Shown: positions 39,843-59,164, counted from the first letter of the stretch. The stretch is 64,000 bases of DNA from Methanobacteriota archaeon (GCA_017857235.1 JAFMDN010000003.1:2005-66004), one strand, 5' to 3'. Notes: generated from the sequence alone by a model not told the origin. Numbers and translations are program-made.

Positions 39843-41218
39843 TTCACCGGTTTTCCGTACTTTTCAATGTACTCCTTCTTTACCCTCTTGAGTTCTCTCT
39901 CCGGGAACATCGAAAGGAGTTCCCAACCTATCTCTAGAGTTCTTTCTATACTTCTATCTTCATCATATCCCTGGGAAACGAACATCTCTTCAAACTTGTT
40001 GGCGAATTCCAAGTAAAGCCTATCATCTTTACCCAAGGCTTCTTGGCCCACTATTGCTGCCAAGCTTCTTAGGTCTACTCCCCTTCCATATGATGAATAA
40101 AGCTGATCTGCCACACCCCTATGATCTTCCCTAGTCCTTCCTTTTCCTATACCTTGATTCATTAACCTTGACAGTGATGGAAGAACATTAACTGGTGGAT
40201 ATATTCCTCTCCTATGTAAATCCCTGGAAAGCACTATTTGACCTTCAGTAATATAACCGGTTAAATCTGGTATTGGGTGAGTCATGTCATCTGATGGCAT
40301 TGAAAGGATAGGAAGCTGAGTGATAGATCCATTCCTACCCCTTATTTTTCCAGCCCTTTCGTAAATGGTGGATAGATCAGTGTACATATAACCTGGATAA
40401 CCTCTTCTGCCTGGAACTTCCTCTCTGGCAGCGGATATTTCTCTCAATGCTTCGCAGTAGTTTGTCATATCGCTTAAAATTACAAGAACGTGCATATCCT
40501 TCTCATATGCGAGATATTCTGCAGTTGTTAAGGCAACCCTTGGCAGGATAATCCTCTCCATGGAAGGATCTGAAGCTAGATTTAAAAATAGAACTGATCT
40601 GTTTAGTGCTCCTGTATTTCTAAACTCTTCTATAAAGAAATTAGCCTCTTCGGATGTTATACCCATGGCACCGAATACCACAGAGAAGCCCTCACTTGAA
40701 GACAGGACTTTTGCTTGCCTAGCTATTTGTGCTGCTAGCCTATTATGGGGTAGTCCTGATCCAGAGAAAATAGGTAACTTTTGTCCCCTAACCAGAGTAT
40801 TCATTCCGTCAATAGTAGATATTCCGGTTTCTATAAATTCCGATGGTTCTTCCCTTGAATAAGGATTTATTGCCTCTCCTACAATTTCTCTTTTTTCAGA
40901 GGCAATTATAGGCCCTAGGTTGTCTCTTGGTTCCCCTATACCATTAAATATTCTTCCTAGCATTTCGTCAGAAACTGGAACTCTTGCTGTTTCTCCCAGG
41001 AATTTGACGGATGTATTCCCTACATCAAGACCAGTAGTTTGACCAAAAACCTGAACTATAGCTAATCCCCTTCTTGATTCAAGAACCTGTCCTGTTCTCC
41101 TTTCCCCATTCTGAAGTCTTATTTCCACAAGTTCGTTGTAACCTACAGAACCTACACCTTCCACAAATAATAAAGGACCTGAAATTCTTGTAACACTCTT
41201 ATAAATTATATCGCTCAT
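39839..41218 (-). CDS. atpB: A-type ATP synthase subunit B
   Basis: 459 aa. [47 protein letters not shown]. Confidence 0.95.
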
Positions 41219-42969: not shown

Positions 42970-42971
42970 TT

Positions 42972-43307
42972 TTAAATACCCCCTATATTCAATTTCAATC
43001 CCAAAACTTTTCTTGCTAAATCTGAAATAGTCTCTTCCTCCTTTAATACATTGACAGGAACAAAAATAACAAGCGGAGATACGCTCGTTTCTATTAAACT
43101 TAAAAATCGCTTATCTAAGGAATTGATAAATGAATTTGAAGCAAGTATAAGCCCGTATTCACCACTTCCATATATCATCTTTAGAGTTTCCTGGAAATCC
43201 TTTTCGCCAACGGGAAAAACATCCTCTATACCTACTAGTTTAAATCCTATAGCCAATTCCCTTTCGCCTATGAACGCGATTTTACCAAATTTTTGTTTCA
43301 CATCCAA
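42972..43307 (-). CDS. atpF: A-type ATP synthase subunit F
   Basis: 111 aa. IAFIGERELAIGFKLVGI is typical of V/A-ATPase F. Positioned between C and A. Confidence 0.8.
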   Translation of the reverse strand: MDVKQKFGKIAFIGERELAIGFKLVGIEDVFPVGEKDFQETLKMIYGSGEYGLILASNSFINSLDKRFLSLIETSVSPLVIFVPVNVLKEEETISDLARKVLGLKLNIGGI

Positions 43308-44375
43308 TTAAATCACCTTATTAATCAATAACATGGAAATTTCCTCTTCTGATAGGTTATAAAATTTTCCAGAAGCGATTTTTTTAATGTCTTTCCATTG
43401 AGCTTCTGCTCTCATCAGGAAAGCGATTACGTTATTTATGGAGAGTGAGCTCATTTCGAAAATTTCCAAAAATTCCCAATATATATTTCTCTCTATTTCA
43501 CTCTCAATTCCTACCAGAGAACTTGTATTCTTGTAATAATCTAGACCTGTTGTTATATTAAATATGCTCTTAACTTTCTGAATAACTTCTTCGACTGAAT
43601 TGCTTTTAATTAAATCGTCTATCTGTTGATCCGTCAATCCCCCTCCTTTAATAATGAAATCCTTTATATCTTCTACATTACCGTATTCTATTCCCTTTAA
43701 GATTGTCATCAGGTTTTTGGAGTCAATTATCCTTTTTATATACCTGTAAATAGGACCTTCGGAACCGTTGAAGAACCTAAATTTCTCTCTCATCATTTCA
43801 TAATAGTATAAGTCAAGGGATAACAAAAGCGATGTAACGTTATTATTCTTCTTATAATCGTCAATAAATGAAAGTAAAGCTTTACCATAACCGTATCTCA
43901 GGGTATAAGAAACTATATCCTCAATATTATCCATAGATAAAATGTTCCTATAATCCTCATAGCTTAAAAGTCCTGCATACATTCCTACAGGGAGGTTTTT
44001 AGAAGTAATCAAATAAATTTGGGTTTGTTCTATTTTATTATTGGCAGATTTAGCAGCGATTATGGTTTTTAAATTTAGCAGGTCCCATTTACTAAGGTAT
44101 GAGACAATTAGATCTTTTCCATTATATGGCGTAACACTCAAGGCATACCTATTTAATCTAGCAAAATATGAATTATTTGATATTTCAATTAAATCTAAGC
44201 CGGAGTATTGATTGGAATATTGACTTAGATCATCCTTTAGCCCTTTTTCGCTTAGGAGTGAAATAATGTCATTCACGCTGCTTGCCTTAATTAAATCTTC
44301 GTAATCCTTCTTTGACAACAGATTTAGCTTTTCAACCTTGAGTGTTCCATAAGGGAGGCCATATAATGATCTCAA
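43308..44375 (-). CDS. atpC: A-type ATP synthase subunit C (d-like)
   Basis: 355 aa, all-helical, repeated LK.I....N/E..L pattern. Operon position between E and F. Confidence 0.75.
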   Translation of the reverse strand: MRSLYGLPYGTLKVEKLNLLSKKDYEDLIKASSVNDIISLLSEKGLKDDLSQYSNQYSGLDLIEISNNSYFARLNRYALSVTPYNGKDLIVSYLSKWDLLNLKTIIAAKSANNKIEQTQIYLITSKNLPVGMYAGLLSYEDYRNILSMDNIEDIVSYTLRYGYGKALLSFIDDYKKNNNVTSLLLSLDLYYYEMMREKFRFFNGSEGPIYRYIKRIIDSKNLMTILKGIEYGNVEDIKDFIIKGGGLTDQQIDDLIKSNSVEEVIQKVKSIFNITTGLDYYKNTSSLVGIESEIERNIYWEFLEIFEMSSLSINNVIAFLMRAEAQWKDIKKIASGKFYNLSEEEISMLLINKVI

Positions 44376-44379
44376 TTTA

Positions 44380-44949
44380 TCACCCTAAAATATAATCCCT
44401 CATAACTTTCCTTAAACTTTCCATCCTGTTCCTAATTATTTCCTCTAGGGTATAATCTATCTCCATTTTTCCATCAGCACTTGTTATTATTACACCACCC
44501 AATGGATCAACTTCCTTTTGCACTACATTAAGGGGGAACGAAAATTTATTTATTTTTTCAATATCCCTTTGATTTGCATAAATTATAGCTCCCGGACCAA
44601 GTTTCTCCCAACCTTTCTGTATTCTATCATGGAGGAATTTCTCGTATTCTGGTGAATTAACAAACTCCTGAAGTTTTCTATTTAAGTTCTGCAAAATGTT
44701 TTCCTGAATTGATTCGATCTCCTTTTCAAACTTATTTCTGTTTTCTAGCAATGCTGCTGAGATTATTTGTCTTTTTAATTTATCTCCATCCATCTTGGCC
44801 TTTTTCTTCGAATTTTCGATAATCTGTTGGGCTTTAACCTCTGCGTCTTTTAACAACTGCTGGGCCTTGGAATTCGCTTCTTTCAGTATTTCTTCTTCTT
44901 GTCTATTTGTTTCTTCTTCAATCTCTTTTAGTATCTCTTCGAGTGGCAT
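44380..44949 (-). CDS. atpE: A-type ATP synthase subunit E (peripheral stalk)
   Basis: 189 aa. N-terminal E/K/Q-rich helix (EILKEIEEETNRQEEEILKEANSKAQQLLKDAE) plus a globular C-terminal domain. Confidence 0.8.
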   Translation of the reverse strand: MPLEEILKEIEEETNRQEEEILKEANSKAQQLLKDAEVKAQQIIENSKKKAKMDGDKLKRQIISAALLENRNKFEKEIESIQENILQNLNRKLQEFVNSPEYEKFLHDRIQKGWEKLGPGAIIYANQRDIEKINKFSFPLNVVQKEVDPLGGVIITSADGKMEIDYTLEEIIRNRMESLRKVMRDYILG

Positions 44950-45976: not shown

Positions 45977-46672
45977 ATGATATTTATGTCATTTAATTCA
46001 GAAAATTTTTACACACAACTGTATAGCTTTGTTAAGCAGCATCCGGCCACAAATAATGATTTCATAAATAGGTTTTCTAAGGGACAAGTCAGCCCCAGTG
46101 AATTCAATAGATTTTCTATTGAATTTTACCACTTTACACGGGAGTGGCCTTCAATCCTCGCAATACTCCTGGTTAATGAACCAAACGAATCTGATGCTTA
46201 CAATTTAACTAAAATATTGGTTTCTGAACTTGGTGATGATGACCCTAACAAAAGGCATGAATTATTATATAGAAGGTTTCTTAGATCTGTAGGGTTGAAT
46301 CCTTCTGAATTAATATTCAGGAAGAAACTTGATACAACAAGGGATTGGCTAGATGCCATGAGAAGGCTTTTCTCATCAAGTCATTTCAGGGCTTTAGGTG
46401 CTGAATTTGGCTTAGAAAACATGGCAATCCCAATGTGGGACAAATTGATCCCCGGATTAAATTACATCAAATCAAATTGGAAAGGATATGAGAAAATGGA
46501 TATTGAATACTTCACATTCCACAGGGAGCTGGAGATACATCATGAAGAAGCTATGGAAAATGTCCTTGGTGAACATATTGATGACGTATCTGCAAGGGAG
46601 GAATTTTACAACGGTGCTAAAGAGATTTTGGATTACGAAGAAAAATTCTGGTTAGGACTATCTGATAGGTGA
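45977..46672 (+). CDS. Heme-oxygenase-like iron-containing redox enzyme family protein (tentative)
   Basis: 231 aa, all-helical. Candidate metal-ligand motifs SELGDDDPNKRHELLY, GLENMAI and FHRELEIHHEEAM resemble the E..H pairs of the Haem_oxygenas_2/CADD-type family. ATG 45986 is an alternative start. Confidence 0.5.
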   Translation: MIFMSFNSENFYTQLYSFVKQHPATNNDFINRFSKGQVSPSEFNRFSIEFYHFTREWPSILAILLVNEPNESDAYNLTKILVSELGDDDPNKRHELLYRRFLRSVGLNPSELIFRKKLDTTRDWLDAMRRLFSSSHFRALGAEFGLENMAIPMWDKLIPGLNYIKSNWKGYEKMDIEYFTFHRELEIHHEEAMENVLGEHIDDVSAREEFYNGAKEILDYEEKFWLGLSDR

Positions 46673-47760
46673 ACTTCATGGAGAGGGATATTTACGATTC
46701 CATAGATTATATTGAATTTTATGTTGGTTCAGCTTTTCAATGGGCATATTTCCATCAAAAGGCAATGGGTTTTAAGCTTGATGCTTATTCAGGTCCCGAA
46801 ACAGGAATTAAGGATAGAGTTTCATATGCACTTTCACAAGGCAATGTAAAATTAATATTTACAAGTGCATTGACACCGGCTTCAGAGGTGGCAGAGCATA
46901 ATTATGTTCATGGAGATGGGGTTAAAGATATTGTTTTGAAAACAGATGATATAGAAGAAGTTAATTTAGATTTAAAAGAAAGGGGAGTAACATCCCTTAA
47001 TAATCTGGAAAATATAAAGACTGAATTTGGAATTTTAAAGAAAGCCTATATTAATACTTATGGTGTAACTAAACATTCTGTACTCGATTATTCAGAATAT
47101 GAAAATAAAACATTGCCGGGTTTTCAAGAGATAGATGAAGGAGAATCCTGGGGTTTAATAAATGCAGTTGACCATGTTGTGGGCAATGTGGAAATGAATA
47201 TGATGGATCGATGGGTTGACTATTATATAAGGGGAATGGGTTTTAGGCAGCTCATCTCGTTTGATGATAAAGATATATCCACTGAATATTCAGCCCTAAA
47301 ATCAAAGGTAGTTAAATATAAGAACAGAGACATTACATTCCCGATAAATGAACCAGCCTATGGAAAGAAGAAATCTCAGATACAGGAATATCTTGATTAT
47401 TATAAGACACCTGGGGTTCAGCATATTGCTTTGCGAACAGATAATATAATAGAGACAGTAGAAAAAATGAGGAAAAATGGGGTAAGATTTCTAGAAACTC
47501 CAAAGTCTTATTATGACAATCTTGAGGAAAGGGTTGGTAAAATAGACGAGGATATAGAAAAATTAAAAGAATTAAACATATTGGTGGATAGAGACGATAG
47601 GGGTTATCTTTTACAAATATTTACCAAGCCAATTGGAGACAGACCAACTTTCTTTTATGAGATAATACAAAGAAAAGGGGCTGAATCCTTCGGAAAAGGA
47701 AACTTTAAAGCACTGTTTGAGGCTATAGAGCGAGAACAGGCCAAAAGAGGAAATTTGTAA
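46669..47760 (+). CDS. hppD: 4-hydroxyphenylpyruvate dioxygenase
   Basis: 363 aa. IDYIEFYVG, VDHVVGNV, GVQHIALRTDNI, YLLQIFTKP, FFYEIIQRKGAESFGKGNFKALFEAIEREQ. Confidence 0.9.
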   Translation: MNFMERDIYDSIDYIEFYVGSAFQWAYFHQKAMGFKLDAYSGPETGIKDRVSYALSQGNVKLIFTSALTPASEVAEHNYVHGDGVKDIVLKTDDIEEVNLDLKERGVTSLNNLENIKTEFGILKKAYINTYGVTKHSVLDYSEYENKTLPGFQEIDEGESWGLINAVDHVVGNVEMNMMDRWVDYYIRGMGFRQLISFDDKDISTEYSALKSKVVKYKNRDITFPINEPAYGKKKSQIQEYLDYYKTPGVQHIALRTDNIIETVEKMRKNGVRFLETPKSYYDNLEERVGKIDEDIEKLKELNILVDRDDRGYLLQIFTKPIGDRPTFFYEIIQRKGAESFGKGNFKALFEAIEREQAKRGNL

Positions 47761-48593
47761 TGAAGTTGGGTACTGCAATAGTCGGAAATGATAGAAAGTT
47801 TATTAGGAAAATTAATAGATGGGAATTTACCGATGTCCCCCCCAACAATACTATGTTAATTGACTATAATTATGAGTTCCGTGAGTTAAATGGCGATATA
47901 ATTTTTGATATACCGGTGCCTGAAATTCAAAATGTAAGAGATTTTTATTCATTTGAAAGCCATGTTAAAAATTCTAGAAAACGCAGAGGCTTGGATATGG
48001 AACCCGAGTGGTATAATATACCTGCATATTATTATCAAAACAGGAGCAGTGTTTTACCAACGGAGCGTGAAATAAAATATCCGTCATTTACAAAACAATT
48101 GGATTTGGAAGTGGAATTGGCGTTTGTAATAGGAAAATCTGGTATTAATTTATCTCGAGAAAATGCTATTGATAATGTCCTAGGTTTTATGCTGGCAAAT
48201 GATTGGACGGCCAGAGACATTCAGAAGTCCGAAATGAAGATTGGCTTGGGCCCATCCAAGTCAAAAGATTTCGCTACCTCACTTGGCCCATATATCACTA
48301 CAATTGATGAACTCTCACATAAAATAGAAAGGGGGAGAATTTACCTTGAAATAGAACTTTTCATAAATGGAGTAAAAATTAGGACCCTCAGCACCGATGA
48401 TATGTACTGGACAATAAATGATCTTGTTAGTTATGCTTCAAAGGATTGTGAAATTAAATTGGGGGATGTTTTTATGACAGGTACGTTAGCAGGGGGGTCT
48501 CAAGCAGAGTTAGACGAAGATTTTCTGAAGAAAGGTGATTTGGTTGAGATCAGGTCTAAAGAACTTGGAATTTTGAAAAATAGGGTGGTATAA
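47760..48593 (+). CDS. Fumarylacetoacetate hydrolase (FAH) family protein, short form
   Basis: 277 aa. LDLEVELAFVIGK, ANDWTARDIQ, GPSKSKDF, GDVFMTGTLAG. 1-nt TAATG overlaps on both sides. Confidence 0.8.
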   Translation: MKLGTAIVGNDRKFIRKINRWEFTDVPPNNTMLIDYNYEFRELNGDIIFDIPVPEIQNVRDFYSFESHVKNSRKRRGLDMEPEWYNIPAYYYQNRSSVLPTEREIKYPSFTKQLDLEVELAFVIGKSGINLSRENAIDNVLGFMLANDWTARDIQKSEMKIGLGPSKSKDFATSLGPYITTIDELSHKIERGRIYLEIELFINGVKIRTLSTDDMYWTINDLVSYASKDCEIKLGDVFMTGTLAGGSQAELDEDFLKKGDLVEIRSKELGILKNRVV

Positions 48594-49726
48594 TGCCTTT
48601 TTATGTTAAGATTGGGAATTTACCAAAATACAGGCATACTTTCGATAAAGATGTCTATTTTGAAGAAGTTATAAGTTCGGAAAGTTTCGATGGGCCATAT
48701 AGCATATTATACCATAATAAGGAGCCAACCAACTTTTTGGAATATGAAATAAGGAACAAAGATGCAAAAATGGAGGAGAAATATATAAGCCAGCATTCCC
48801 ACATTCTAACTCAAAAAATTAAGGGGAATGGTGACTTTGCATATTCCAGGAAATATTTATTTGGTAATGATTATCTTTCAATAGGAATCTCTAGGGTAAA
48901 TAAGACAGGAGATTATCTAATGAGGTTCGGTAATAGGCATCTTCTTGCATTCGTACATCAGGGAGATGGACTACTGGAAACAAATATGGGGTCCTTGAAT
49001 TATTTTGAGCATGATTATATCTTAATTCCAAAAGGCGTACTGTTTAGGTTTATTCCTAAGGGTGAAACGTTTCTCTTTTTTGTAGAATCAGGAGATTCTA
49101 TTAATTTTCCACAGAGGTATGTTAACGGTTTAGGACAATTAAAGCTTCAATCCCCAATTAGCGATCGTAACATAAGGATCCCAGAATTAAGATATAGTGA
49201 TTTACCTGTGAAGAAAATTATTGTTGATTCGGGGAATGAATATTTGGAATATATTCCTTCCAGTGATCCTAGAGATCTTGTTGGTTGGGATGGCACATAC
49301 TACCCATTTGCATTAAATGCTTTGGATCAGATGCCGTGGGTTGGTAAGATACACCTTCCTCCTCCCGTTCATCAGACTTTTGATAGCAAACACTTCATGG
49401 TGGCTACATTTCTTCCAAGACCATTTGATTTCCATGAAAGGGCTATACCTATATCCTTCTATCATTCTAACGTTGATGTTGAGGAAATTCTTTTTTATTC
49501 CTCTGGAAACTTCATGAGTAGGAAAGGAATAAAAAAGGGATCGATTACCATACATGTTAGGAATCTGACTCACGGACCGCATCCCGGAAAATACAAAGAA
49601 TCTATAGGTAAAGAATGGACTGACGAACTTGCTGTTATGCTAGAGGTATATGACAGGATAAAATTCTACAAAGGTACAGATGAACTCCTTGACAAAAATT
49701 ATATGTCTAGCTGGAGGGAAGAATGA
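48593..49726 (+). CDS. hmgA: Homogentisate 1,2-dioxygenase (short archaeal-type)
   Basis: 377 aa. Cupin core with SFYHSNVDVEEILFY...ITIHVRNLTHGPHPG, resembling the HGD metal-ligand region (FHRN..SE...HGP). Pathway context with hppD and FAH. Confidence 0.7.
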   Translation: MPFYVKIGNLPKYRHTFDKDVYFEEVISSESFDGPYSILYHNKEPTNFLEYEIRNKDAKMEEKYISQHSHILTQKIKGNGDFAYSRKYLFGNDYLSIGISRVNKTGDYLMRFGNRHLLAFVHQGDGLLETNMGSLNYFEHDYILIPKGVLFRFIPKGETFLFFVESGDSINFPQRYVNGLGQLKLQSPISDRNIRIPELRYSDLPVKKIIVDSGNEYLEYIPSSDPRDLVGWDGTYYPFALNALDQMPWVGKIHLPPPVHQTFDSKHFMVATFLPRPFDFHERAIPISFYHSNVDVEEILFYSSGNFMSRKGIKKGSITIHVRNLTHGPHPGKYKESIGKEWTDELAVMLEVYDRIKFYKGTDELLDKNYMSSWREE

Positions 49727-50733
49727 AAGTATTCACTTATTTACCTATAAAAAAGGTGTATTATGGAGAAGATGCCAATGAGCACATCATGGATTTTATT
49801 CGTGTGAATTCCAAACTTTATATAGTTACAGGAAGAAGAACCTCGGAATCAAATGAATTTAAAAATATTCTTAAAAAATTAGAAAGTAAAAGAATAAATT
49901 ACGAGATTCTAAATTTCATATCTCAACACTCCCCAGACAATGAAATTGAAATCGCCCTCCAACAAATCGATGACCACCATGAGCATGATATACTAGGATA
50001 TGGAGGAGGCTCAGTTATAGATGCTTCTAAGATATTAAAATTGAAGTCAAACGCTCAAACACTTATTGCTGTGCCAACTACATTGAGTGCTTCCGAATTT
50101 TCACATATTGCTGGTTATTCGGAAAATGGGGAGAAGAAGGGGATAAGGGACATAAATATTACTCCAGATTATATTGTGCTTGACCCAAGAAATACTATTT
50201 CTACTCCAAGAGAACTTTATATGGCTTCTGGTATAAGGGCTATTGACCATGCGATTGAATCTGCCCTGGATCTAGGATTGTCTGATCCCAGGCTTTATAC
50301 CTCAGTAATATCCTATAAGCTTTTAAGGGATAATTTAAGGGGATCAAGTTTGGAGGAAAGAATGCTTTCCCAAATAGGCTCATGGTTCTCATATTTTAAT
50401 GTCTTTGATTCTCCAATGGGGCTAAGCCATGCCATTGGTAAAATAATTGGAGCAAAATATGGGATACCTCATGGATTCACATCTTGCATAACATTACCCG
50501 TGATAATTGACTACTACGAAAAAACTGGAAGGCTGGATAACTTTTTAAATCTCTTATTCCAAAAAGTTGATTACAAGGAACTAAAGAATGAAGTTGTTGA
50601 TTTGATTAAGTCTATCCCGGCCAAGACTAAGTTGTCCGAATATGGTCTAGGAAAGGAAGATATAGATATTATAATGGAAAAATTGAATGTTAATCATATA
50701 GGCATTGAGAATTACTTGGAGCAAATGCTATGA
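49723..50733 (+). CDS. Iron-containing alcohol dehydrogenase family protein (maleylacetate-reductase-like)
   Basis: 336 aa. GYGGGSVIDASK, VPTTLSASE and a His-rich C-terminal half (DHAIES, HAIGK, PHG) are typical of the Fe-ADH superfamily. Confidence 0.7.
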   Translation: MKVFTYLPIKKVYYGEDANEHIMDFIRVNSKLYIVTGRRTSESNEFKNILKKLESKRINYEILNFISQHSPDNEIEIALQQIDDHHEHDILGYGGGSVIDASKILKLKSNAQTLIAVPTTLSASEFSHIAGYSENGEKKGIRDINITPDYIVLDPRNTISTPRELYMASGIRAIDHAIESALDLGLSDPRLYTSVISYKLLRDNLRGSSLEERMLSQIGSWFSYFNVFDSPMGLSHAIGKIIGAKYGIPHGFTSCITLPVIIDYYEKTGRLDNFLNLLFQKVDYKELKNEVVDLIKSIPAKTKLSEYGLGKEDIDIIMEKLNVNHIGIENYLEQML

Positions 50734-51338
50734 TATATAATATAAATAATGAATTCTTAAAATGCATTGGATTAGAAGATTATACTGAAATCTTCCATAA
50801 ATTCAAAAAATCGGTATATCCGGCAATAGAAAGGATTAAAGGACAAGAACTATGGCAAATTTCTGAATGTGAGGCATTTTCATTGTTTGCTACGGTTTTT
50901 ATCATTAAACCAAGAATTATAATAGAAACTGGCGTGGGAGCTGGATTGTCAAGCTTATCTATACTTTCTGCGCTTGAGAATGGTAGATTGATAAGTATAG
51001 ATCCTCTAATAAGCTATGGGAATCCTCCAAGAAAGGATTTTGGTTTTCTTGTTCCTGATTATTTAAGAAAGAATTGGAATATTAGAAGAGGGCTATCAAG
51101 AGATATAATGCCTAAATTACTTGATGAAATTGGTTTTATAGATATTTTCCTTCATGATTCAGAGCATTCTTATGATAATATGTATTTCGAATTAAAAACA
51201 TCTTATTCACACATGAAGAACGGGATTATATTTGTTGATAATTATAACTGGAATAATGCTGCTATTGATTTTGCCAATGAAATGAACCTTAAGCTTTTAG
51301 ATGTATGCGACGATATGTGTGCCATATTAATTTATTAA
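50730..51338 (+). CDS. Class I SAM-dependent methyltransferase (Methyltransf_24/CmcI-like)
   Basis: 202 aa. IIETGVGAGLSSLSIL (motif I) and IFLHDSEHSYDNMYFEL, as in CmcI-type sugar/small-molecule O-methyltransferases. Confidence 0.6.
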   Translation: MIYNINNEFLKCIGLEDYTEIFHKFKKSVYPAIERIKGQELWQISECEAFSLFATVFIIKPRIIIETGVGAGLSSLSILSALENGRLISIDPLISYGNPPRKDFGFLVPDYLRKNWNIRRGLSRDIMPKLLDEIGFIDIFLHDSEHSYDNMYFELKTSYSHMKNGIIFVDNYNWNNAAIDFANEMNLKLLDVCDDMCAILIY

Positions 51339-51682
51339 AATGTAATGTGTTTGACGGAAATTTTAAATCCCTAACAATAGTGAGAAGATAAATAAACTTC
51401 TCTCAATAGATAGATTAAAAAAATGAAAAGTTTACACTATATTGACCGCAGCTGATATTAAAATTTACTACTAATCATTCCTGAGGAGACAACGTTTGAA
51501 TATAGGCGAACTATCAACAGTTAGGGTTCGGTGGCTCATTATCTATGAAAAGATTCAACCGGTCAATCATTGCCATTCAATGAAACCCTATTTTATCTGT
51601 GTTTTGAGATACCCGAAGAAACTTTTAAGTTTTAGTGAAGAAGGGTTGACATAGATTCGTAACTACAAAAATTTTTTTAGGT

Positions 51683-52159
51683 ATGATTAAAATAATTATT
51701 GAGAAAATGGAACAATCTTCAAAATTTTCAAGTAAACTTGTATTCACATCAGTATTATTATTTATAATAACGGTCATCGCCCTAATTATTCTAATCACCG
51801 ACAAGAATTTGCAAACGGATTTTGGAGCTGTCAAGCCCTATTACTATCACTGGTATGGTCTTCTATTTTTAGCCATATTTACATTTGTGTGTGGGATATT
51901 AACCCTCTCAAAGAATAGCAGACTTTCTAGATATTCATCCATATTGGGAGGTGTTATTCCATTAATTTTTATAATCATAGATGTGTTCATTCTTTACAAA
52001 TCAGTTGGATTTTACAGTTACATACAATTTGCACAATATCTCTTTGGCATTTCAAGATACCCCTATTCTCTTCCATACATCCCAGGACTCTTCGATGTAT
52101 ACACTGCCCTATTATTCTTGGAATTAATATTAGCATTGATGATTAAATCTGCTGAATAG
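51683..52159 (+). CDS. Small integral membrane protein (about 4 TM)
   Basis: 158 aa with four long hydrophobic segments. No recognisable motif. Confidence 0.45.
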   Translation: MIKIIIEKMEQSSKFSSKLVFTSVLLFIITVIALIILITDKNLQTDFGAVKPYYYHWYGLLFLAIFTFVCGILTLSKNSRLSRYSSILGGVIPLIFIIIDVFILYKSVGFYSYIQFAQYLFGISRYPYSLPYIPGLFDVYTALLFLELILALMIKSAE

Positions 52160-52240
52160 TAAAGCTTATTCAAATTGAATCAGAATGTTGACAAAGGTGA
52201 AATCGGGCAATTGATTAAATAACTTTCTTCACCTTAAAAA

Positions 52241-52978
52241 TCATTTTATTTTCGTTATGTGAAAGAGAATAAAATTATAGAAGGGTGTCAGTATTCTTTT
52301 CTCTGTTTCGCTTATAATATAACTATTGTAAAATTTATTGAATCTGGTTTCTATGAAATTTTCCAATTTCCTTCTATGCATTAGACCGTAATTTATGGTT
52401 TCCACTGTTATCTTTTTATTTTCTATTTCTTCCTTAAGCAATTTGTAGATTAATTTTTCATTATGGAAACATATCCTTAACCCATTATCCACCAGGCAAT
52501 ACTTCATACGTGAAGGCGGAATTTCAAATTTATCTTTATTTTTGATGATATCATAAATAATTGTGATATTCATTAAATTGTCGATGTTGAATAATAATCT
52601 TCCACCGGGCTTTAAGTAATTTATCCATTCCTTTATAAATACTGGGTTATCATAATGGTGCACAGTCCTGAAACTTATTATTACATCAATAGAATTGTTT
52701 TTGAAAAGAGGTTTAGTGAAGTCTGCCCTAATTGCACATGTTGATTTCCCTTTTTTCATTTTCTGGAACTTCGTCAGGTTAGCTTTTGAATAATCAACAA
52801 GATAGACTTTATCAAAATCATTATTTATTATAGAACTAAGCCTACCATAACCCCCACCCAGATCAGCAAGGATCTCTCCTTTTAGTTTTAGGGATCTTAG
52901 TATCCTAATTTCAATTTGCTCCAGGCTTTCATCCTGGTTTTCAAAAATATAATTTTCAAACACCAGGATTAATATCAA
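52241..52978 (-). CDS. Class I SAM-dependent methyltransferase
   Basis: 245 aa. ILADLGGGYGRLS (motif I), VYLVDYS, IDVIISFRTVHH, LKPGGRLLF. Confidence 0.65.
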   Translation of the reverse strand: MILILVFENYIFENQDESLEQIEIRILRSLKLKGEILADLGGGYGRLSSIINNDFDKVYLVDYSKANLTKFQKMKKGKSTCAIRADFTKPLFKNNSIDVIISFRTVHHYDNPVFIKEWINYLKPGGRLLFNIDNLMNITIIYDIIKNKDKFEIPPSRMKYCLVDNGLRICFHNEKLIYKLLKEEIENKKITVETINYGLMHRRKLENFIETRFNKFYNSYIISETEKRILTPFYNFILFHITKIK

Positions 52979-53013
52979 TTAAATTTTTAAACTTACTTAA
53001 ATTATTATTAGCA

Positions 53014-53817
53014 ATGAAAGATTACTTTGAAGTATCTGACATATTTTCAAAAGCCTCTCCAGTTTATGATGATAAAATATCCCAAAATAAAACAAACCTC
53101 ATAATAAGGGATATAGAAGTGAATACCCTAGAACATTATATCAAAGAATTCAACGGGAATTTAGATAGGATATTGGAAATAGGTTGCGGAACTGGACAGG
53201 AAGCACTAAGAATTATGAAAAAATTTGACATTGGAGTTGATTGCATAGACATATCAAATGGAATGCTAAAAATTTCAGTGAATAAGATAAAAAATCATGG
53301 TCTATCTGATAAATTTAGACCTATGAGGTTAGCCGCATCTAACTTGGATGTACTAAAGAGAAGGTATAAAATAGTATACAGCTTCAACGGGGCTCTGAAT
53401 ACTGAACCACAATTTAAAAAATTCATAAAATCCATTGAAAGTGTGCTTGATGATGAAGGTGTACTTATTTTTAGCATTAGGAACAGGTACTGTATTAGTG
53501 ATTTTATATACTCAATGCTCAAATTTAATGGAAGAAGGATAAAGGAAAGGATTAAGGGAGATGTCCAAGTACCGGTAGCTGAATTTTTTGTAGAATCCAG
53601 ATATTTCTCATATAATGAAATTCTCAATCTATTTAATTCGGATTTTAAATTAATTAGAGCCTATGGATTAGGAATAATAATATTTCCTTATATTTCAAAT
53701 TTCTTTCCAAATGGGTTTTTCGATAATTTTATGGGAAAATTGGAAAAAAGCCTTTCTAAAGTATTTCCATTTAACATGTTGGGGGATGAAATTTTATATG
53801 TTTTTAAGAAACGCTAA
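53014..53817 (+). CDS. Class I SAM-dependent methyltransferase
   Basis: 267 aa. ILEIGCGTGQEA (motif I), CIDISNGML, LDDEGVLIFS. Confidence 0.7.
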   Translation: MKDYFEVSDIFSKASPVYDDKISQNKTNLIIRDIEVNTLEHYIKEFNGNLDRILEIGCGTGQEALRIMKKFDIGVDCIDISNGMLKISVNKIKNHGLSDKFRPMRLAASNLDVLKRRYKIVYSFNGALNTEPQFKKFIKSIESVLDDEGVLIFSIRNRYCISDFIYSMLKFNGRRIKERIKGDVQVPVAEFFVESRYFSYNEILNLFNSDFKLIRAYGLGIIIFPYISNFFPNGFFDNFMGKLEKSLSKVFPFNMLGDEILYVFKKR

Positions 53818-54817
53818 TTTTGAATATGTTAAGATTCCCCCTCCTTTCTTAAGGAAAGAAAGGGTAATATTATTGAAAAATGATTCAATAATGTTATTAT
53901 TAGCAAACAGGAAACAGGCTGAAATTTTTAATTTATTACCTTATGTGATTTACAAGAAATCGTATTTTAAGCTTCAAAAATACGAACATGGACAGCTCTA
54001 TGAGAACAACTTATCTTTAATCAAGGGCGACGTTTTTATTATGAATCTCGTCGAGGATATTGATTATAACTTGGAAGAAATTCTTGCAGAAGTTTTTAAC
54101 ACAGAGAATAAATATTACTTACAAAGCTTGAAGAATAATAAGGTCCAGGTTTATATGAGAGACTTTACTAGGAGATTAATTCTAAAATATGTAAAAAAGG
54201 GATCCGATGTTCTAGACCTTGGATCTGGGCCTGAACCAGAGACTTTGGTTTTAGAAGATACCTGCAATTTATATTGCTACGACATATCAGAAATAGCTTT
54301 GGAAAATTTAAGGAGAAATCACCCAAAAGTAAAACCAATTAACAGGGCTATCTTGGATTCTTTAGAAATTAAGTTCGATTCAATTTTTACGAGCTTCGGA
54401 TTTTTAGAACTTGCTGATTTAGATCTGGTAAAGAATATAATCGACAAAAATTTAAAAGATGGAGGAACATTTATTGCATGTTATCTTAACAAATTAGCAA
54501 TTTCAGACTTGTTACTTAACATTCTCCAGCTAAGATTTGGATATGCAATGCAGAGGCTTTCAGGAATGATTGACGGTAATCATTCAAGATATAGACTAGC
54601 GGTGAGATTAATAAATGATGACCTAATCGAGAAATTTGGAATAGAGATCAAAGAAAGCTATTCTATATGCAGCATACTGCCACCATATTATTTTACAAAC
54701 CTTATAGGTAAATTGGATATCAATAAACTCATACAAATGGATTACTCCTTATCAAATGTGAAGCTTCTTAGGAGCTTAGGAGATTTTAAGTGTATAGTAG
54801 GTGTAAAAAATGCATAG
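53798..54817 (+). CDS. Class I SAM-dependent methyltransferase with ~130-aa N-terminal extra domain
   Basis: VLDLGSGPEPETL (motif I), CYDISEIAL, LKDGGTFIA. Start trimmed from the track value 53711 to ATG 53798 (MFLRNANFEY). The earlier codons lie inside the preceding methyltransferase gene. Confidence 0.6.
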   Translation: MFLRNANFEYVKIPPPFLRKERVILLKNDSIMLLLANRKQAEIFNLLPYVIYKKSYFKLQKYEHGQLYENNLSLIKGDVFIMNLVEDIDYNLEEILAEVFNTENKYYLQSLKNNKVQVYMRDFTRRLILKYVKKGSDVLDLGSGPEPETLVLEDTCNLYCYDISEIALENLRRNHPKVKPINRAILDSLEIKFDSIFTSFGFLELADLDLVKNIIDKNLKDGGTFIACYLNKLAISDLLLNILQLRFGYAMQRLSGMIDGNHSRYRLAVRLINDDLIEKFGIEIKESYSICSILPPYYFTNLIGKLDINKLIQMDYSLSNVKLLRSLGDFKCIVGVKNA

Positions 54818-56552
54818 TCTCAAAAATTGGAGGGTATTTCTGTTTATTAGTATTCTTTTGCTGATAATAACTTATCTTCTATCCTTGGCACCCTATGGCT
54901 ATAACACATTTACCATCAATAATGGAAATTTTTCAATTGAAGTATCACCAATAAATTTCACACCCATAGGAAATTTTTTTGGATTTCAATCCATTAAGAT
55001 AATAATTATAAACAATGGATATGAAAATCTTAGCTCTTCCATTAGTTACGCCAATCATTTATTGAATTTATCTTTAAAACCGCATTCTGGAACTATTCAA
55101 TACATACAACCCAAGTCTAGCTTTAATCTATTATATATTAATATTACCACGTTAAATTACACGAAAGACATTACAATTAAGATAAATTTCAATTCGCCTC
55201 TACTTACCCTTTTATCTGAAATAACTATGCTCTTCTCATTCTATTTTTATTATCTATTCTTGAAATTTTATAATTCTAATTTCAAACTTACATGGTTAAT
55301 AATACTGCTTGGCTACCTAATATTGGCTCCATTTTTCGGGCAAAGATATGATATGTATTTTGTGCTCACTTCTCCCCTTAGGATTATTAAGCACATAAAT
55401 CCCTTTATAGGCAATGAAATGATGCCAGGCGGGTTAAAATGGGCCTATCCTCCTTTGTTTCTAATTTATGGTATACTATTTTATACGGTTTTGCATTATT
55501 TTGGTTTAAATTTCGATCCATCATTCACATATCTTGTTACATCTGGATATGAATATAGTGCTTGGAGAGGTTTTTACAATCCTGAGCTCCCTTTACTTTT
55601 CTTCCTTGAGAAATTACCCCTGATAATTTCAACTTTCATAATTTATTGGTTATTTCTTAAAAAATTTAATTTCCAATATTCAAAGATTGAACTGGAAAAA
55701 TTCTGGTTACTCAATCCGCTGATTATTCTCATAGGCACCGTTTGGGGTCAGTTTGATATGCTCTCTTTATTAAGTATGATTCTCTCTATCTACTTCTTCC
55801 TAAAGAACAGAACCGACTTAGCATCTATATTTGCCACAATCGGTGCTTTTATTAAGATATTTCCAGTCATCTTAATACCTTACATAATATTGAATAGCCA
55901 AAGGAAAATAAGAGATATATCTTATGTAATCCTATTTAGCGTTATTTCATTGATTCCTTATTTTATTGCCGGTAATTTTTATATGGACTTAGAGGTTCTA
56001 ATTTACTCAAGATCGGTTCCTACTGTCAATGGATACTTTTTTGCCAACGGAATGACATGGCAAATATTACCTTTGTACCTTGGAATCAAAAATTTTCCTG
56101 GAATATTTCCTTACATTTTAATTCCAATTTATCTGACCTTGCTTATTATGTCAAAAAGGTTGAAAATAAGTATTATAGAGTTTTCTCTGATCTTTATAAT
56201 TTCTTTCTTTATATTTTTCAACTTTGTGAATCCACAGTATTTTATCATACCTGTTGCGCTTTTTATATTAATGAGGAATAAGCCTTATCTAATTCTATAT
56301 TCTCTCATTCCAATATTGTATGTTTTCCTAAATTATTCATTCCCTTATTTCGTCAATTACTATTATTCTTACAATTATTTCTCATCAACTCTTGGCTTGG
56401 GTGAAAGCTTTAGGCTCTTCTTTACTAATAGCGCCATTACCTTAGGAACCTATGTAGTAATTTGCACTATAATTTACATAATGACGTTATTAGCTATAAT
56501 AAGAGATATCCTATCTCGAAATAAGTCTCCAGATTCCATACTCCCGTCCTAG
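54810..56552 (+). CDS. GT-C-fold polytopic glycosyltransferase candidate (DUF2029/PIG-V-like mannosyltransferase type)
   Basis: 580 aa. N-terminal TM plus a ~100-aa sequon-bearing external domain, then more than 10 TM segments with FGQRYDMYF (first-loop Asp) and WGQFDMLSLLSMILSIYFFLKNRTDLASIFATIGAFIKIFPVILIPY, a pattern typical of polyprenol-P-sugar-dependent GT-C enzymes. Confidence 0.5.
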   Translation: MHSLKNWRVFLFISILLLIITYLLSLAPYGYNTFTINNGNFSIEVSPINFTPIGNFFGFQSIKIIIINNGYENLSSSISYANHLLNLSLKPHSGTIQYIQPKSSFNLLYINITTLNYTKDITIKINFNSPLLTLLSEITMLFSFYFYYLFLKFYNSNFKLTWLIILLGYLILAPFFGQRYDMYFVLTSPLRIIKHINPFIGNEMMPGGLKWAYPPLFLIYGILFYTVLHYFGLNFDPSFTYLVTSGYEYSAWRGFYNPELPLLFFLEKLPLIISTFIIYWLFLKKFNFQYSKIELEKFWLLNPLIILIGTVWGQFDMLSLLSMILSIYFFLKNRTDLASIFATIGAFIKIFPVILIPYIILNSQRKIRDISYVILFSVISLIPYFIAGNFYMDLEVLIYSRSVPTVNGYFFANGMTWQILPLYLGIKNFPGIFPYILIPIYLTLLIMSKRLKISIIEFSLIFIISFFIFFNFVNPQYFIIPVALFILMRNKPYLILYSLIPILYVFLNYSFPYFVNYYYSYNYFSSTLGLGESFRLFFTNSAITLGTYVVICTIIYIMTLLAIIRDILSRNKSPDSILPS

Positions 56553-57386
56553 CCAGAGGTCTATCCTCGCGAGCAAGCTAGACAATCCCTCCATGAAAAT
56601 CAACAGAATTAAGCTTGGCAATACGTTAGGATCATCCTTAATAACAAATAGAAGTATGTTGAATGAATGCCTAATATTGGCAAGAGAAATGGTTGACAGA
56701 GAGTATGGATCATTACCTTCCAATTTAAGTTCCCAGTGTCCATAGTTTATCCTTCTCCTTTGATTAAGATAATCATTAAGATTTCTTGGTGGGATGCATC
56801 TTATTTTGACTTCGTTTGAGTATTTTATCTTGTAACCCATCTTATAGGCAATGTTGCAGAAAAAAGCATCTTCATTTATTTCTCCCTTATAACCAAATAG
56901 TAATTCCTTTCTTACAAATAGAATTTCACCTGCATGAGCAGGTAGACCTTTAGATAACTTATACCTTATCTGGTAATCATTAACTATCCATAGCACTCTG
57001 AAAATTTTATTGAATAATCCAGTGTCTTTAATAGGTTCTATTCTTGCAAACACAACTCCTGTATCTTCACTGAACTTCGAGGCTAGATAATCCAAGATAT
57101 CATCATTATCTATTAAGATATCACCGGACACCATGGCAACAACATCTTCCCTTACTATTGAAATTGCTTCTATAACAGATTTTGGTTTACCTAGGCGACT
57201 GTTCTGTTTTATAAATTGAAACCTATCATCTTTGATGCCGAATATATAGTCATATGGTAATTTTCCCCCTCCAATAAGTGTAATTCTTCTAGCATTACTG
57301 TGTAGGGCGCTATTTAGAACACCTTTTAATAGGTCGGAATCATCGTAACTAAAAATAACAATTTCATAATTCATTTTCGGTCCCAT
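56511..57386 (-). CDS. Family 2 glycosyltransferase with C-terminal membrane segment
   Basis: 291 aa. YEIVIFSYDDSDLL (GT-A N-terminus), MVSGDILIDNDD (DxD-like), NQRRRINYGHW (QxxRW-like), hydrophobic tail PSLILLIFMEGLSSLL. Confidence 0.55.
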   Translation of the reverse strand: MGPKMNYEIVIFSYDDSDLLKGVLNSALHSNARRITLIGGGKLPYDYIFGIKDDRFQFIKQNSRLGKPKSVIEAISIVREDVVAMVSGDILIDNDDILDYLASKFSEDTGVVFARIEPIKDTGLFNKIFRVLWIVNDYQIRYKLSKGLPAHAGEILFVRKELLFGYKGEINEDAFFCNIAYKMGYKIKYSNEVKIRCIPPRNLNDYLNQRRRINYGHWELKLEGNDPYSLSTISLANIRHSFNILLFVIKDDPNVLPSLILLIFMEGLSSLLARIDLWLGREYGIWRLISR

Positions 57387-58050
57387 TTACTTTTTTTCTA
57401 AGTTCTCCATATTTTCTCGAATCAAAATAAAATTTTCTCCACCCATAGACAATTTTGAAATCTCCTTTTGACTTTTCCAATTTCTTTGATGCGATCATTC
57501 CCTTTATTAATACAGGAGGCAAAACGACTATCATGGATATGAGATTTAATAATAAATTTTTGATATGTCTAATTTTAAATTTCTCATTTTTAATCTTATT
57601 TGTAGGTACCTTTGGCTCTGTTTCCCTGTTGTTTATTTTTTCTAATAAGGATTCATAAAAATTTTGTCCGAAAATAACAATTGCATGTTTGGCATCAGAT
57701 ATTATCAACTTATCATCTAGTCTTTGAAAATAGTCTACCGAGAAACGCTCGTCCATAAATAGCGACAAACAAATTCTATCATATCGATACAGTTTTCTAA
57801 CAATGAGAGATTTAAGAAAAACAAACCATAAAAGATCCTTTTTCGTTATAAGGAAAATATCTATATCATCTTCAGGAGATGGTTCATATGAAGTAGATCC
57901 TACAATAGCACTTACTCTTATCCCCTTTTCCCCTAGCTCTCTAAGAAATTTTGTGCCTATTTCTATGAACTCTGCTTTAATGGATTTTTGCTCTGTCAAC
58001 AGCGAATTATTATTTTTTCCATCATTCCAATTGTATGGGGAAAACTTCAT
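57364..58050 (-). CDS. Pol-beta-superfamily nucleotidyltransferase-domain protein with hydrophobic C-terminal segment
   Basis: 228 aa. IVGSTSYEPSPEDDIDIFLI fits the minimal NTase G-S...D-x-D motif. Later LLLNLISMIVVLPPVLIKGMIA is TM-like. 23-nt overlap with the downstream GT2. Confidence 0.5.
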   Translation of the reverse strand: MKFSPYNWNDGKNNNSLLTEQKSIKAEFIEIGTKFLRELGEKGIRVSAIVGSTSYEPSPEDDIDIFLITKKDLLWFVFLKSLIVRKLYRYDRICLSLFMDERFSVDYFQRLDDKLIISDAKHAIVIFGQNFYESLLEKINNRETEPKVPTNKIKNEKFKIRHIKNLLLNLISMIVVLPPVLIKGMIASKKLEKSKGDFKIVYGWRKFYFDSRKYGELRKKVNGTENEL

Positions 58051-58306
58051 TTACATTTCATTAAAAATAAATTTCGAATAATAACTTAACGTTAATTAAA
58101 AGTTTTAGGTTTTCCTCATAAGCTACAAAAAGATTAAACATTGAATTTAAAAATTATAATTGAATTAAAAATGTTAGGAGTTAACCCAACCTATTATAAT
58201 GAAAATTGTAACACATGCTATAGTATGTATTATTTAAATTCATCCCTCTTAATTCTAATTGCTACAGATCATTCGGGTGGTGCAATTATTGCAGGGATGA
58301 GGGAAA

Positions 58307-59164
58307 GTGCCAATGGTTTTTAATAATTCAAAAGACCATCACCTTATTGATTCACTCCAAAGTTATGCTAATCTGGAGATCAATTTGGCATCACAAAGAA
58401 GTCCCTCTGAATATTTAAGACCGTTTTCCCTAATTCTTCCTTGTAAAAATGATGCTTACCTATTGGAGAAATTGCTTCATATAATAGAAAATTTAGATAA
58501 TGAATTTTTTTCAAAAAAATTCGAAGTAATAATAATTGACGAATCCACAGATCAAAAAAGTATAGAAATTATAGATAAACTTCCCTTAATTTTCTCTAAT
58601 TTAAATATGAAAATCACTAGAGTGCCGCCGGGTACTGGGCTTCTGACATCAGAATTGATAGGGCTTAAAGCGGCAATGTATCCATGGAAAGTCGTTATGG
58701 ATTGCGATCTCCAGCATTCTCCAAAAGATATCTTTAAATTATTGGAAAAACTTAATTCTCAGGCAGACTTGGTTGTGGGGTCAAGATTCCTGGATGGTAG
58801 TGATTTCCAACTATCCATATTCCGCAGGGTTGTAAGTATATTGGCCAACGCATATGTAAAGATCATTCTTCCCTTTGCTATTTATTTAACAGATACCACT
58901 TCTGGCTTTTTTGCGATTTCCGAAAAAGTTTCCGTTGAAAATGTCCAAATTAAAGGTAGTAAGACTCTACTGTTCATAATTTCTAAAAATCCAGGCCTAA
59001 AAATTGCAGAAGTACCGATCACTTTCAATAGAAGGATTTATGGAAAAAGCAAACTTTTCAATCCTTTATATTTAATGAGATTTCCTTTGGAAATATACGA
59101 ATATAGGAAGTATTATTTGAAATGCAAAAAAGGTGATTCTAAGAAATCCCTTGATAATCCCTGA
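58307..59164 (+). CDS. Dolichyl/polyprenyl-phosphate hexosyltransferase-like GT2 (Dpm1/AglD/AglJ type)
   Basis: 285 aa. SLILPCKNDAYLL, VIIIDESTD, MDCDLQHSPKD (the D-x-D-L-Q-H block of Dol-P-sugar synthases), VGSRF. GTG 58307 or ATG 58313 start. Confidence 0.7.
   Translation: MPMVFNNSKDHHLIDSLQSYANLEINLASQRSPSEYLRPFSLILPCKNDAYLLEKLLHIIENLDNEFFSKKFEVIIIDESTDQKSIEIIDKLPLIFSNLNMKITRVPPGTGLLTSELIGLKAAMYPWKVVMDCDLQHSPKDIFKLLEKLNSQADLVVGSRFLDGSDFQLSIFRRVVSILANAYVKIILPFAIYLTDTTSGFFAISEKVSVENVQIKGSKTLLFIISKNPGLKIAEVPITFNRRIYGKSKLFNPLYLMRFPLEIYEYRKYYLKCKKGDSKKSLDNP

Follow-up and report, generated by a model that had tools for sequence, protein, structure and literature searches.

An eight-gene cassette conserved among uncultured archaea and its probable role in the assembly of a dolichol-linked surface glycan

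A stretch of 64,000 nucleotides from a Methanobacteriota archaeon (GCA_017857235.1 JAFMDN010000003.1:2005-66004; hereinafter the window, that is, the entire stretch of DNA analysed here) contains, at positions 51683-59164, eight genes that encode three class I S-adenosylmethionine (SAM) methyltransferases (MTs), denoted MTa, MTb and MTc; a glycosyltransferase of the GT-C fold (hereinafter GT-C); two GT2 family glycosyltransferases, GT2a and GT2b; a nucleotidyltransferase (NTase) of 228 amino acids (aa), X228; and a 158-aa protein with four transmembrane segments (4-TM), TM158. We consider it probable that these genes comprise an assembly cassette, with two linked modules, for a dolichol-linked surface glycan; the product is most likely an N-glycan or another dolichol-linked glycan of the cell surface. 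On balance, the cassette appears to be a conserved, vertically inherited module that is common to uncultured archaea with a preference for acid and heat. Glycan pathways that combine dependence on polyprenol-phosphate sugars with methylation are of a known kind; what is new is the triad of GT2, NTase and MT, and so are three protein families (GT-C, NTase and 4-TM) for which no curated family matches at threshold and which turned up here in uncultured organisms only. To our knowledge, archaeal surface glycans are very diverse, and the few pathways that have been worked out all come from cultured model species. The cassette is a testable candidate for an unknown modification of a glycan or glycolipid in archaea that dominate acidic, hot habitats.

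A conserved cassette and its fused core

The eight genes are colinear, at 25-59% identity, in the loci L002/L007, L003, L004/L010, L009, L012, L013, L052 and L053, and at least eight metagenome-assembled genomes (MAGs) of Thermoplasmata carry the cassette in this form, with the order 4-TM, MT (-), MT (+), MT (+), GT-C (+), GT2 (-), 228-aa protein (-), GT2. Distant relatives, in which the cassette proteins are 25-47% identical, possess the same eight genes between unrelated flanks, and some of these distant loci have the distal pair, 4-TM and GT2b, in inverted orientation. The repetition of order and orientation across many genomes makes this an arrangement that is far beyond chance.

How widely is this gene set spread? 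The two GT-C motifs that are best conserved were scanned against one genome per species (185,579 species), which yielded 43 GT-C loci, all of them in uncultured archaea (Thermoplasmata, Marsarchaeota, Thaumarchaeota/Nitrososphaerales and Thermoprotei), with no cultured species among the matches. The best GT-C in these representative genomes is only 40-42% identical to the window copy, and the species of the window is therefore absent from the representatives. No record has exactly the protein sequence of the window GT-C, the nearest being a 99% identical metagenome contig (L001). When all open reading frames (ORFs) of 40 non-redundant GT-C loci were clustered (Table 1), the core of GT-C, MT, GT2a and X228 was found in 27 of the 40, Thaumarchaeota-type genomes included. 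In the latter, the core adjoins genes for PF00953 (Glycos_transf_4), DUF354, a GFO/IDH/MocA oxidoreductase and a hexapeptide acetyltransferase; we take the PF00953 gene to encode an initiation enzyme of the AglH/Alg7 type, and this gene context is that of dolichol-linked oligosaccharide assembly. A 517-aa GT21-like GT2 (beside X228) and sometimes a PF04185 phosphoesterase are also encoded near the core in these genomes. Phosphoesterases of PF04185 recur in five GT-C loci and beside one GT2-NTase fusion, and, in Thaumarchaeota-type clusters, a DSP-type PTP-like phosphatase is encoded directly upstream of GT-C in L005 (7486-8004, where the two genes overlap by 4 nt), L027 (8975-9481) and L051 (16018-16503). 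These recurrent phosphatases and phosphoesterases hint at phosphate chemistry in the pathway.

Within the core, GT2a adjoins X228 in nearly all loci, and X228 is translationally coupled to GT2a. The X228 alignment was used for an exhaustive profile search that, at a cut-off of E<=1e-30, delineates a family of 235 representative clusters. Six protein clusters (663-713 aa) are fusions of a GT2 with X228, and the 751-aa protein P0136 consists of X228, followed by an F420H2_quin_red domain and then by an MT. The fused GT2 is a member of the GT2a family (hhalign probability 99.8%, with the QRRRI block included), and the fused MT of P0136 is a member of the MTc family (hhalign probability 100%). The fusion in L054 is surrounded by haloarchaeal-type regulators, along with a PF04185 phosphoesterase, two MTs and a GT4. 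The fusions show that GT2a, X228 and an MT form one functional unit, the substrates of which we infer below, and therefore the density of MTs together with an NTase is not an accident of the neighbourhood. This linkage, in which the NTase is an obligate partner of GT2a and the MT, is the principal new finding of the analysis and had escaped the earlier note.

An ORF scan returned all nine ORFs of the region, namely those of the cassette and that of a Methyltransf_24/CmcI-like MT (MT24), at the coordinates given in an earlier note on this DNA, and reproduced the gene content, the overlaps and a 344-bp gap described there (Table 1). The domain calls of that note (three class I MTs, a Methyltransf_24 protein, a GT-C, two GT2s and a Pol-beta-fold NTase) are upheld, and the motifs QRRRINYGHW and DCDLQHSP that it listed are found in the translations. 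When, as it had recommended, Pfam families were assigned to the ORFs, X228 and TM158 gave nothing credible.

Table 1. ORFs of the region, grounds for their assignment and occurrence of their families among the 40 non-redundant GT-C loci
Protein	Description	Length (aa)	Position	Strand	Basis	Loci with the family
MT24	Methyltransf_24/CmcI-like MT	202	50730..51338	+	PF13578, E 5.7e-11	
TM158	four transmembrane segments, unannotated family	158	51683..52159	+	hydrophobic-segment prediction	16/40
MTa	class I SAM methyltransferase	245 as called	52241..52978	-	PF08241 Methyltransf_11, E 2e-14	12/40
MTb	class I SAM methyltransferase	267	53014..53817	+	PF13649 Methyltransf_25, E 2.5e-12	27/40 (MTb/c family)
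MTc	class I MT core	339	53798..54817	+	sub-threshold Pfam MT matches and family profile	27/40 (MTb/c family)
GT-C	GT-C-fold glycosyltransferase	580	54810..56552	+	AlphaFold2/Foldseek; weak GT87 match	
GT2a	membrane-tailed inverting GT2	291	56511..57386	-	PF13632 Glyco_trans_2_3, E 1.3e-6	27/40
X228	Pol-beta-fold nucleotidyltransferase, unannotated family	228	57364..58050	-	model and Foldseek, signature residues	27/40
GT2b	Dpm1/AglD/GtrB-type polyprenyl/dolichyl-phosphate hexose synthase		58307..59164	+	PF00535 Glycos_transf_2, E 6.3e-15	8/40, solely those with the full cassette

Genes of the region overlap head-to-tail at 53798/53817 (20 nt), 54810/54817 (8 nt) and 57364/57386 (23 nt), and tail-to-tail at 56511/56552 (42 nt) and 59139/59164 (26 nt). 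Two incomplete loci can be added to those listed above. In L046, the same 3' part of the cassette lies at a contig end. L008 has an otherwise complete cassette in which no GT2a was detected between the GT-C and NTase genes (~11341-12075), where the GT2a gene may have been lost or degraded.

A proposed two-module scheme for a lipid-linked glycan

In the first of the two proposed modules, a hexose would be added at the outer face of the membrane. The enzyme class of GT2b is clear from sequence comparison, namely a dolichyl/polyprenyl-phosphate hexose synthase, the sugar not being given by the matches. The protein is similar to the P. furiosus dolichyl-phosphate (Dol-P) mannose (Man) synthase 5mlz (E 5e-25, residues 40-266), contains the DCDLQH motif and matches, below the equivalog cut-offs, the NCBIfam models for PgfS, the haloarchaeal Dol-P-hexose transferase, AglJ, ArnC and PpgS. 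By homology, GT2b would load a hexose on dolichyl or polyprenyl phosphate at the cytoplasmic face; the lipid-sugar would then move to the outer face, where GT-C, to judge from its fold, might pass the hexose to a lipid- or protein-linked glycan via the aspartate of its GQRYD motif.

The AlphaFold2 model of GT-C (pLDDT 82, pTM 0.86) is matched by Foldseek, with probability ~1, to ALG6, PIG-M (GPI mannosyltransferase I), PIG-U, PimE, ALG3/9/12 and EmbB. The top match is ALG6 (TM-score 0.47/0.55), and the solved entries with Dol-P-glucose (Dol-P-Glc) or Dol-P-Man ligands among the matches are those of ALG6, GPI mannosyltransferase I and ALG3/9/12. The predicted structure confirms that the protein belongs to the GT-C glycosyltransferase superfamily. 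It starts with a transmembrane segment that is followed by an extracytoplasmic beta-sandwich (~30-127) and then by a polytopic core; the invariant motifs are GQRYD (177-181) and WGQxD (312-316). The aspartate of the former, D181, which comes after a helix at 161-172, is invariant in 15 of 15 sequences and, by the positive-inside rule, is predicted to face outward. As to sequence similarity, a match to the GT87/PimE family PF09594 (E 7e-5, 23.0 bits, below the cut-off of 25) covers residues 310-388 only, one homologue (P0005) has a precomputed PF09594 match, and the GT-C profile found no relative among the PDB sequences. GT-C is not an oligosaccharyltransferase (OST), because it has neither an STT3 domain match in Pfam nor a WWD motif. 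It is a putative user of polyprenyl-phosphate sugars, as suggested solely by the neighbouring Dol-P-hexose-synthase-like GT2b. Thus, the likeness to ALG6, PIG-M, ALG3/9/12 and PimE consists in the GT-C fold, an acidic residue in an outer loop (on a topology reading) and a cognate Dol-P-hexose synthase, encoded nearby; unlike these enzymes, to which it has no sequence-level relation, the protein has an extra N-terminal transmembrane segment and beta-sandwich, and its GQRYD and WGQxD motifs are family-specific. The view of the earlier note, that the genes specify a partly extracytoplasmic glycan pathway that depends on polyprenol-phosphate sugars and includes methylation, is borne out by the match of GT2b to 5mlz (E 5e-25) and by the fold that GT-C has in common with ALG6, PIG-M and PimE. 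Its remark that it could assign the combination of dense methyltransferases and an NTase to no described archaeal Agl pathway also stands, no characterised Agl locus or curated family having been found at threshold for GT-C, the NTase or the 4-TM protein.

TM158, which often is encoded directly upstream of GT-C, might be a partner of the latter at the outer face or a translocator of the lipid-sugar. Four to five hydrophobic segments are predicted in this family, the mean column identity is 53%, and the loops contain the invariant motifs TDxNLQTDFG, HWY, YLFG and YxPGL; the positive-inside rule predicts that these conserved loops face outward. No relative of the family was found in Pfam or PDB, and none of 15 members matches GtrA (PF04138) at E<=1. 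An assignment as an ArnE/F-like flippase via EamA was rejected because the match appears in one of 15 members only and is attributable to chance. The earlier note stated that the region has no flippase, and indeed none was identified, but with the co-conserved TM158 at hand such an absence cannot be asserted.

The second module would operate at the cytoplasmic face and consists of the triad of GT2a, MTs and X228. The best solved match of the GT2a family profile is PcManGT of Pyrobaculum calidifontis (6yv7-9, E 1.3e-14), and the similarity to BcsA extends over positions 162-216 only (E 5e-5). The invariant residues of the family are R64, G66, K67, D89, N171, Q209, R210, R212, G216 and H217; of the catalytic signatures, D89, N171/D172 and Q209-R-R-R212 are invariant, with isoleucine in place of the tryptophan of QxxRW. 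By sequence, GT2a resembles the minimal cellulose-synthase-like GT2s, its block Q-R-R-R-I being a variant of QxxRW. PcManGT (6YV7-9), an archaeal GT2 that is anchored in the membrane, has a minimal cellulose-synthase-like fold and binds GDP-mannose. The differences are that GT2a has 291 aa against 355 aa in PcManGT and one predicted C-terminal hydrophobic helix, that it carries QRRRI in place of QxxRW, and that it is paired with, or fused to, an NTase.

X228 has no match in Pfam, NCBIfam, PADLOC or PDB sequence searches, and for only three of 20 family members is there a similarity to the Pfam Polbeta/NTP_transf_2 models, at E 0.08-0.18. Nevertheless, the family shows the signature of Pol-beta NTases, with invariant G51, S52, D62 and D64 and with D100 conserved in at least 90% of the members, and Foldseek matches the AlphaFold2 model (pLDDT 86), with probabilities of 0.95-1.0, to MNT antitoxins, ANT(4'), AadA, HalB and Tam41. 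By signature and predicted fold, X228 belongs to the Pol-beta nucleotidyltransferase superfamily. MNT antitoxins, the kanamycin NTase ANT(4') and AadA share with it a Pol-beta core with the G-S and DxD motifs and a third acidic residue, and the chemistry of the ANT enzymes, which move a nucleoside monophosphate (NMP) to a sugar hydroxyl, is the nearest to a glycan-modifying role. X228 differs from the three in that the TM-scores are 0.30-0.35, there is no sequence match, it has a C-terminal helix and beta-hairpin of its own, in which F198, S211 and Y214 are conserved, and it is encoded among genes for glycan assembly and not in a toxin-antitoxin or resistance setting. The NTase of the earlier note was said to include a hydrophobic segment; the fold holds, whereas the segment is likely amphipathic, being a charged amphipathic helix in the thaumarchaeal homologues, and therefore is probably no transmembrane anchor.

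Turning to the MTs, MTa, MTb and MT24 score above the Pfam cut-offs for class I SAM methyltransferases. In the window copy of MTc, the class I matches are just below the cut-offs; 20 of 20 members of its family match class I models, and the family profile matches solved MTs (E 2.4e-17), phospho(methyl)ethanolamine N-methyltransferases among them. MTc of the window combines an N-terminal domain that has diverged with a class I core and a C-terminal region that is conserved; the family to which it belongs is of ~385 aa, and D162 is nearly invariant in it. In seven of 20 homologues (L027, L030, L033, L036, L038, L043 and L051), the N-terminus of the MT is a split barrel of PF04075 (F420H2_quin_red), of which MTc of the window retains only a diverged remnant. 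A start of MTc at 53798 is supported both by where its orthologues begin and by the gene call made independently in L001. MTb clusters with MTc in one family, as the shorter paralogue. MTa probably starts at the ATG at 52963, and its length would then be 240 aa, as in the L001 gene call. At E<=1e-4, the only enzymes of solved structure related to MTa are phospho(methyl)ethanolamine N-methyltransferases of plants (5wp5, E 8e-11), a likeness that is suggestive and not diagnostic of function.

The present scheme could accommodate these proteins as follows. The PcManGT-like GT2a would add a hexose from a nucleoside diphosphate (NDP) sugar to the growing lipid-linked glycan; the MTs would methylate the glycan, with MTc being the ancestral enzyme, MTb its duplicate and MTa a third enzyme; and X228 might move an NMP or phospho-substituent onto a hydroxyl of the same lipid-linked intermediate. 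We entertain, tentatively, the more specific possibility that the trio of GT2a, X228 and MT is an unrecognised type of enzyme system in which the Pol-beta-fold NTase, in physical association with the glycosyltransferase and the MT, would attach a nucleotide-derived or phosphodiester-linked group to a dolichol-linked glycan, or to a glycolipid of the membrane, in archaea. If true, the modification would be one undescribed in archaea and common to uncultured Thermoplasmata, Thaumarchaeota-type archaea and an archaeon with haloarchaeal-type regulators in the neighbourhood.

The finished product could be handed to protein by the AglB encoded 16 kb upstream of the cassette (28787-34888, minus strand). 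This ORF of 2033 aa has an N-terminal STT3 domain (PF02516, E 6e-10), WWDYG at ~583-587, a CarboxypepD_reg domain and 68 N-x-S/T sequons; it is about twice the usual length of archaeal AglB, with ~1400 aa of extra C-terminal sequence. Hence the absence of an OST, as stated in the earlier note, is true of the region itself and does not extend to the window.

The closest functional parallel is in Haloferax volcanii, where a hexose is attached to a separate dolichol phosphate by the GT2 AglD, the lipid-sugar is brought to the outside (AglR), the polytopic AglS transfers the hexose outside and AglP is a SAM methyltransferase that modifies the glycan (PMC3871713); in Halobacterium, glycan methylation takes place at the lipid-linked stage (PMC11407970). 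The logic of AglD, AglR, AglS and AglP is the same as that proposed here for GT2b, GT-C and the MTs. However, unlike the Haloferax pathway, the cassette has no Wzx/AglR-type flippase and has three MTs instead of one; GT-C, with no curated family match at threshold, is likened to AglS by role alone; and the GT2a-NTase-MT triad has no counterpart in the Haloferax Agl pathway as reviewed (PMC3871713). Of Gtr-type three-component glucosylation, the GtrB-like and GT-C components are present here, and TM158 shows no match to GtrA. The mycobacterial methylmannose polysaccharide cluster is compact and, like the cassette, combines a glycosyltransferase with several SAM methyltransferases; it specifies a cytoplasmic system that is not known to include a GT-C, a lipid-phosphate sugar synthase or an NTase. 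Literature searches found no published description of the cassette.

Several considerations weigh against this scheme. The acceptor, the sugar and the position of methylation cannot be read from sequence, and the cassette includes neither an initiating phosphoglycosyltransferase nor a nucleotide-sugar gene and therefore depends on genes elsewhere. The fold matches of X228 are weak (TM-score 0.30-0.35, E at least 2e-3), and we know of no glycan pathway that employs an MNT/ANT-like NTase. For TM158, no relationship with flippases of the GtrA, Wzx or ArnE/F kind could be detected. The similarities of the MTs are of a generic sort, and MTc of the window may be non-catalytic given that its motif I reads LDLGSGPE, with glutamate for the third glycine. 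Finally, the triad is lacking in 13 of the 40 GT-C loci within the sequence examined, some of which are short contigs.

Alternative readings

Could the cassette instead specify a membrane-lipid head-group or lipoglycan pathway? We regard this as rather unlikely. Under such a scenario, GT2a would glycosylate an archaeol or tetraether lipid, in the manner of GT21/ceramide-glucosyltransferase-type enzymes; X228 would activate or modify the lipid phosphate in a Tam41-like fashion; methylation of the head group would fall to the MT, with its split-barrel domain for the binding of hydrophobic ligands; and the glycolipid would be elongated on the outside of the cell by GT-C, much as phosphatidylinositol mannosides are by PimE. 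The weak GT87/PimE match of GT-C in Pfam and its structural matches to PimE, PIG-M and PIG-U are compatible with this possibility, yet the top fold match is ALG6; Tam41 is found among the fold matches of X228, but only at rank 26, with a TM-score of 0.33. The presence of the GT21-like GT2 of 517 aa beside X228 in Thaumarchaeota-type loci has to be set against the PF00953 initiation-type enzyme and diacetamido-sugar-type genes of the Thaumarchaeota-type clusters, which are typical of dolichol-linked oligosaccharides, and against the best relative of GT2a, PcManGT, which its authors, in their title, place in N-glycan biosynthesis. Head-group chemistry would also be in line with the F420H2_quin_red-type domain that is fused to the MT in seven of 20 homologues and with the phosphoethanolamine N-methyltransferases that are the best solved relatives of MTa. 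The PF04185 phosphoesterases, of a family that includes phospholipase C and acid phosphatase, recur in related loci, as do the DSP-type phosphatases, whereas the cassette of the window has no phosphoesterase. Lipoglycans as such would be no surprise, many Thermoplasmata being wall-less and lipoglycan-bearing. The assembly of a dolichol-linked surface glycan is the reading that we prefer.

The earlier note considered the region to be an accessory-looking, strain-variable island, and one could envisage a recent acquisition that makes the surface decoration differ between strains; this now appears improbable. At 0.30-0.33, the GC content of the region is indeed lower than the window mean of 0.350 (sd 0.030), but the comparison with the flanks that the note called for revealed no deviation in codon usage: GC at third codon positions (GC3) is 0.23-0.33 against 0.31 (sd 0.033) for the window, and the per-codon likelihoods, under the codon usage of the window itself, are within the distribution of the other 47 genes, so that the low GC reflects amino-acid composition. 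The contig L001, 99% identical, has the same genes with identical flanks, and L052, in which GT-C is 56% identical, shares the right junction GT2b-DUF72-PRC-GluRS-NOG1, and therefore the cassette has been passed on within this lineage without leaving its position. The region is flanked by neither an integrase nor a repeat nor a tRNA junction; the closest tRNA is at 45413. What does fit an island is that, at identities of 40% or less, the cassette lies between unrelated flanks, and that its spread over Thermoplasmata, Thaumarchaeota, Marsarchaeota and Thermoprotei, with no cultured species among the 185,579 genomes, is patchy, a distribution indicative of ancient lateral transfer between archaea whose habitats are acidic and hot. 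Together with the colinearity across Thermoplasmata MAGs, the codon usage and the shared flank tell against the island description. The synteny comparison, also suggested in the note, found the order conserved in relatives and no match to a characterised Agl locus. Thus, a region that is island-like by raw GC can prove to be a conserved, vertically inherited module.

Quite implausible, finally, is a phospho-alcohol decoration, LicD-like in function, in which X228 would use a CDP-alcohol to decorate the glycan with phosphoethanolamine or a comparable group, and successive N-methylations by the MTs would bring that group closer to choline: the NTase fold of X228 with its intact DxD, the three MTs of the cassette, the phospho(methyl)ethanolamine N-methyltransferases among the solved relatives of MTa and the MTc-profile matches, and the phosphoesterases and phosphatases of related clusters would agree with it, but none of 20 X228 family members matches LicD (PF04991) at E<=1, the top 50 Foldseek matches include no LicD/fukutin-type (FKRP) structure, most genomes have only one MT of the MTb/c family, no CDP-alcohol synthesis gene is seen in the cluster, and the class I MT similarities are generic. 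A role in anti-phage defence was also considered and rejected: PADLOC gave only generic MT-domain matches to mad2 and none for X228, GT2a, GT-C or TM158.

Boundaries and neighbouring genes

Upstream of the cassette, a tightly coupled aromatic-catabolic operon (45977-50733, plus strand) encodes a TENA/Haem_oxygenase_2-like protein, an HPPD-like dioxygenase, an FAH-family hydrolase, a 377-aa protein with no Pfam match and an Fe-dependent alcohol dehydrogenase (Fe-ADH). The Fe-ADH gene is joined to that of MT24 by an ATGA overlap at 50730-50733, and the 344 bp between the MT24 and TM158 genes (51339-51682) contain no ORF of more than 52 aa and no Rfam match. MT24 adjoins the cassette in no other locus, its sole homologue being ~11 kb from GT-C, in L025; no solved-structure relative of MT24 was found. 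A DUF72 gene, identified by Pfam, directly follows the region, and the CmcI-like MT, Fe-ADH and DUF72 genes do not accompany the cassette in distant relatives. Because MT24 shows translational coupling to the operon, has the gap between itself and the cassette and does not travel with the latter, its gene probably is the last one of the catabolic operon and lies outside the cassette. The coupling to the operon was correctly recognized in the earlier note, whereas the inclusion of MT24 in the island is not supported.

Elsewhere in the window, an ORF of 705 aa (9049-11166, plus strand) has no Pfam match at E<=1e-4. The giant AglB is adjoined downstream, on the same strand, by the gene for a Thioredox_DsbH (DUF255) protein of 622 aa (34939-36810, minus strand). 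Between the AglB neighbourhood and the catabolic operon lies a housekeeping operon for an A/V-type ATPase, with subunits I, A, B and others (36869-44949, minus strand).

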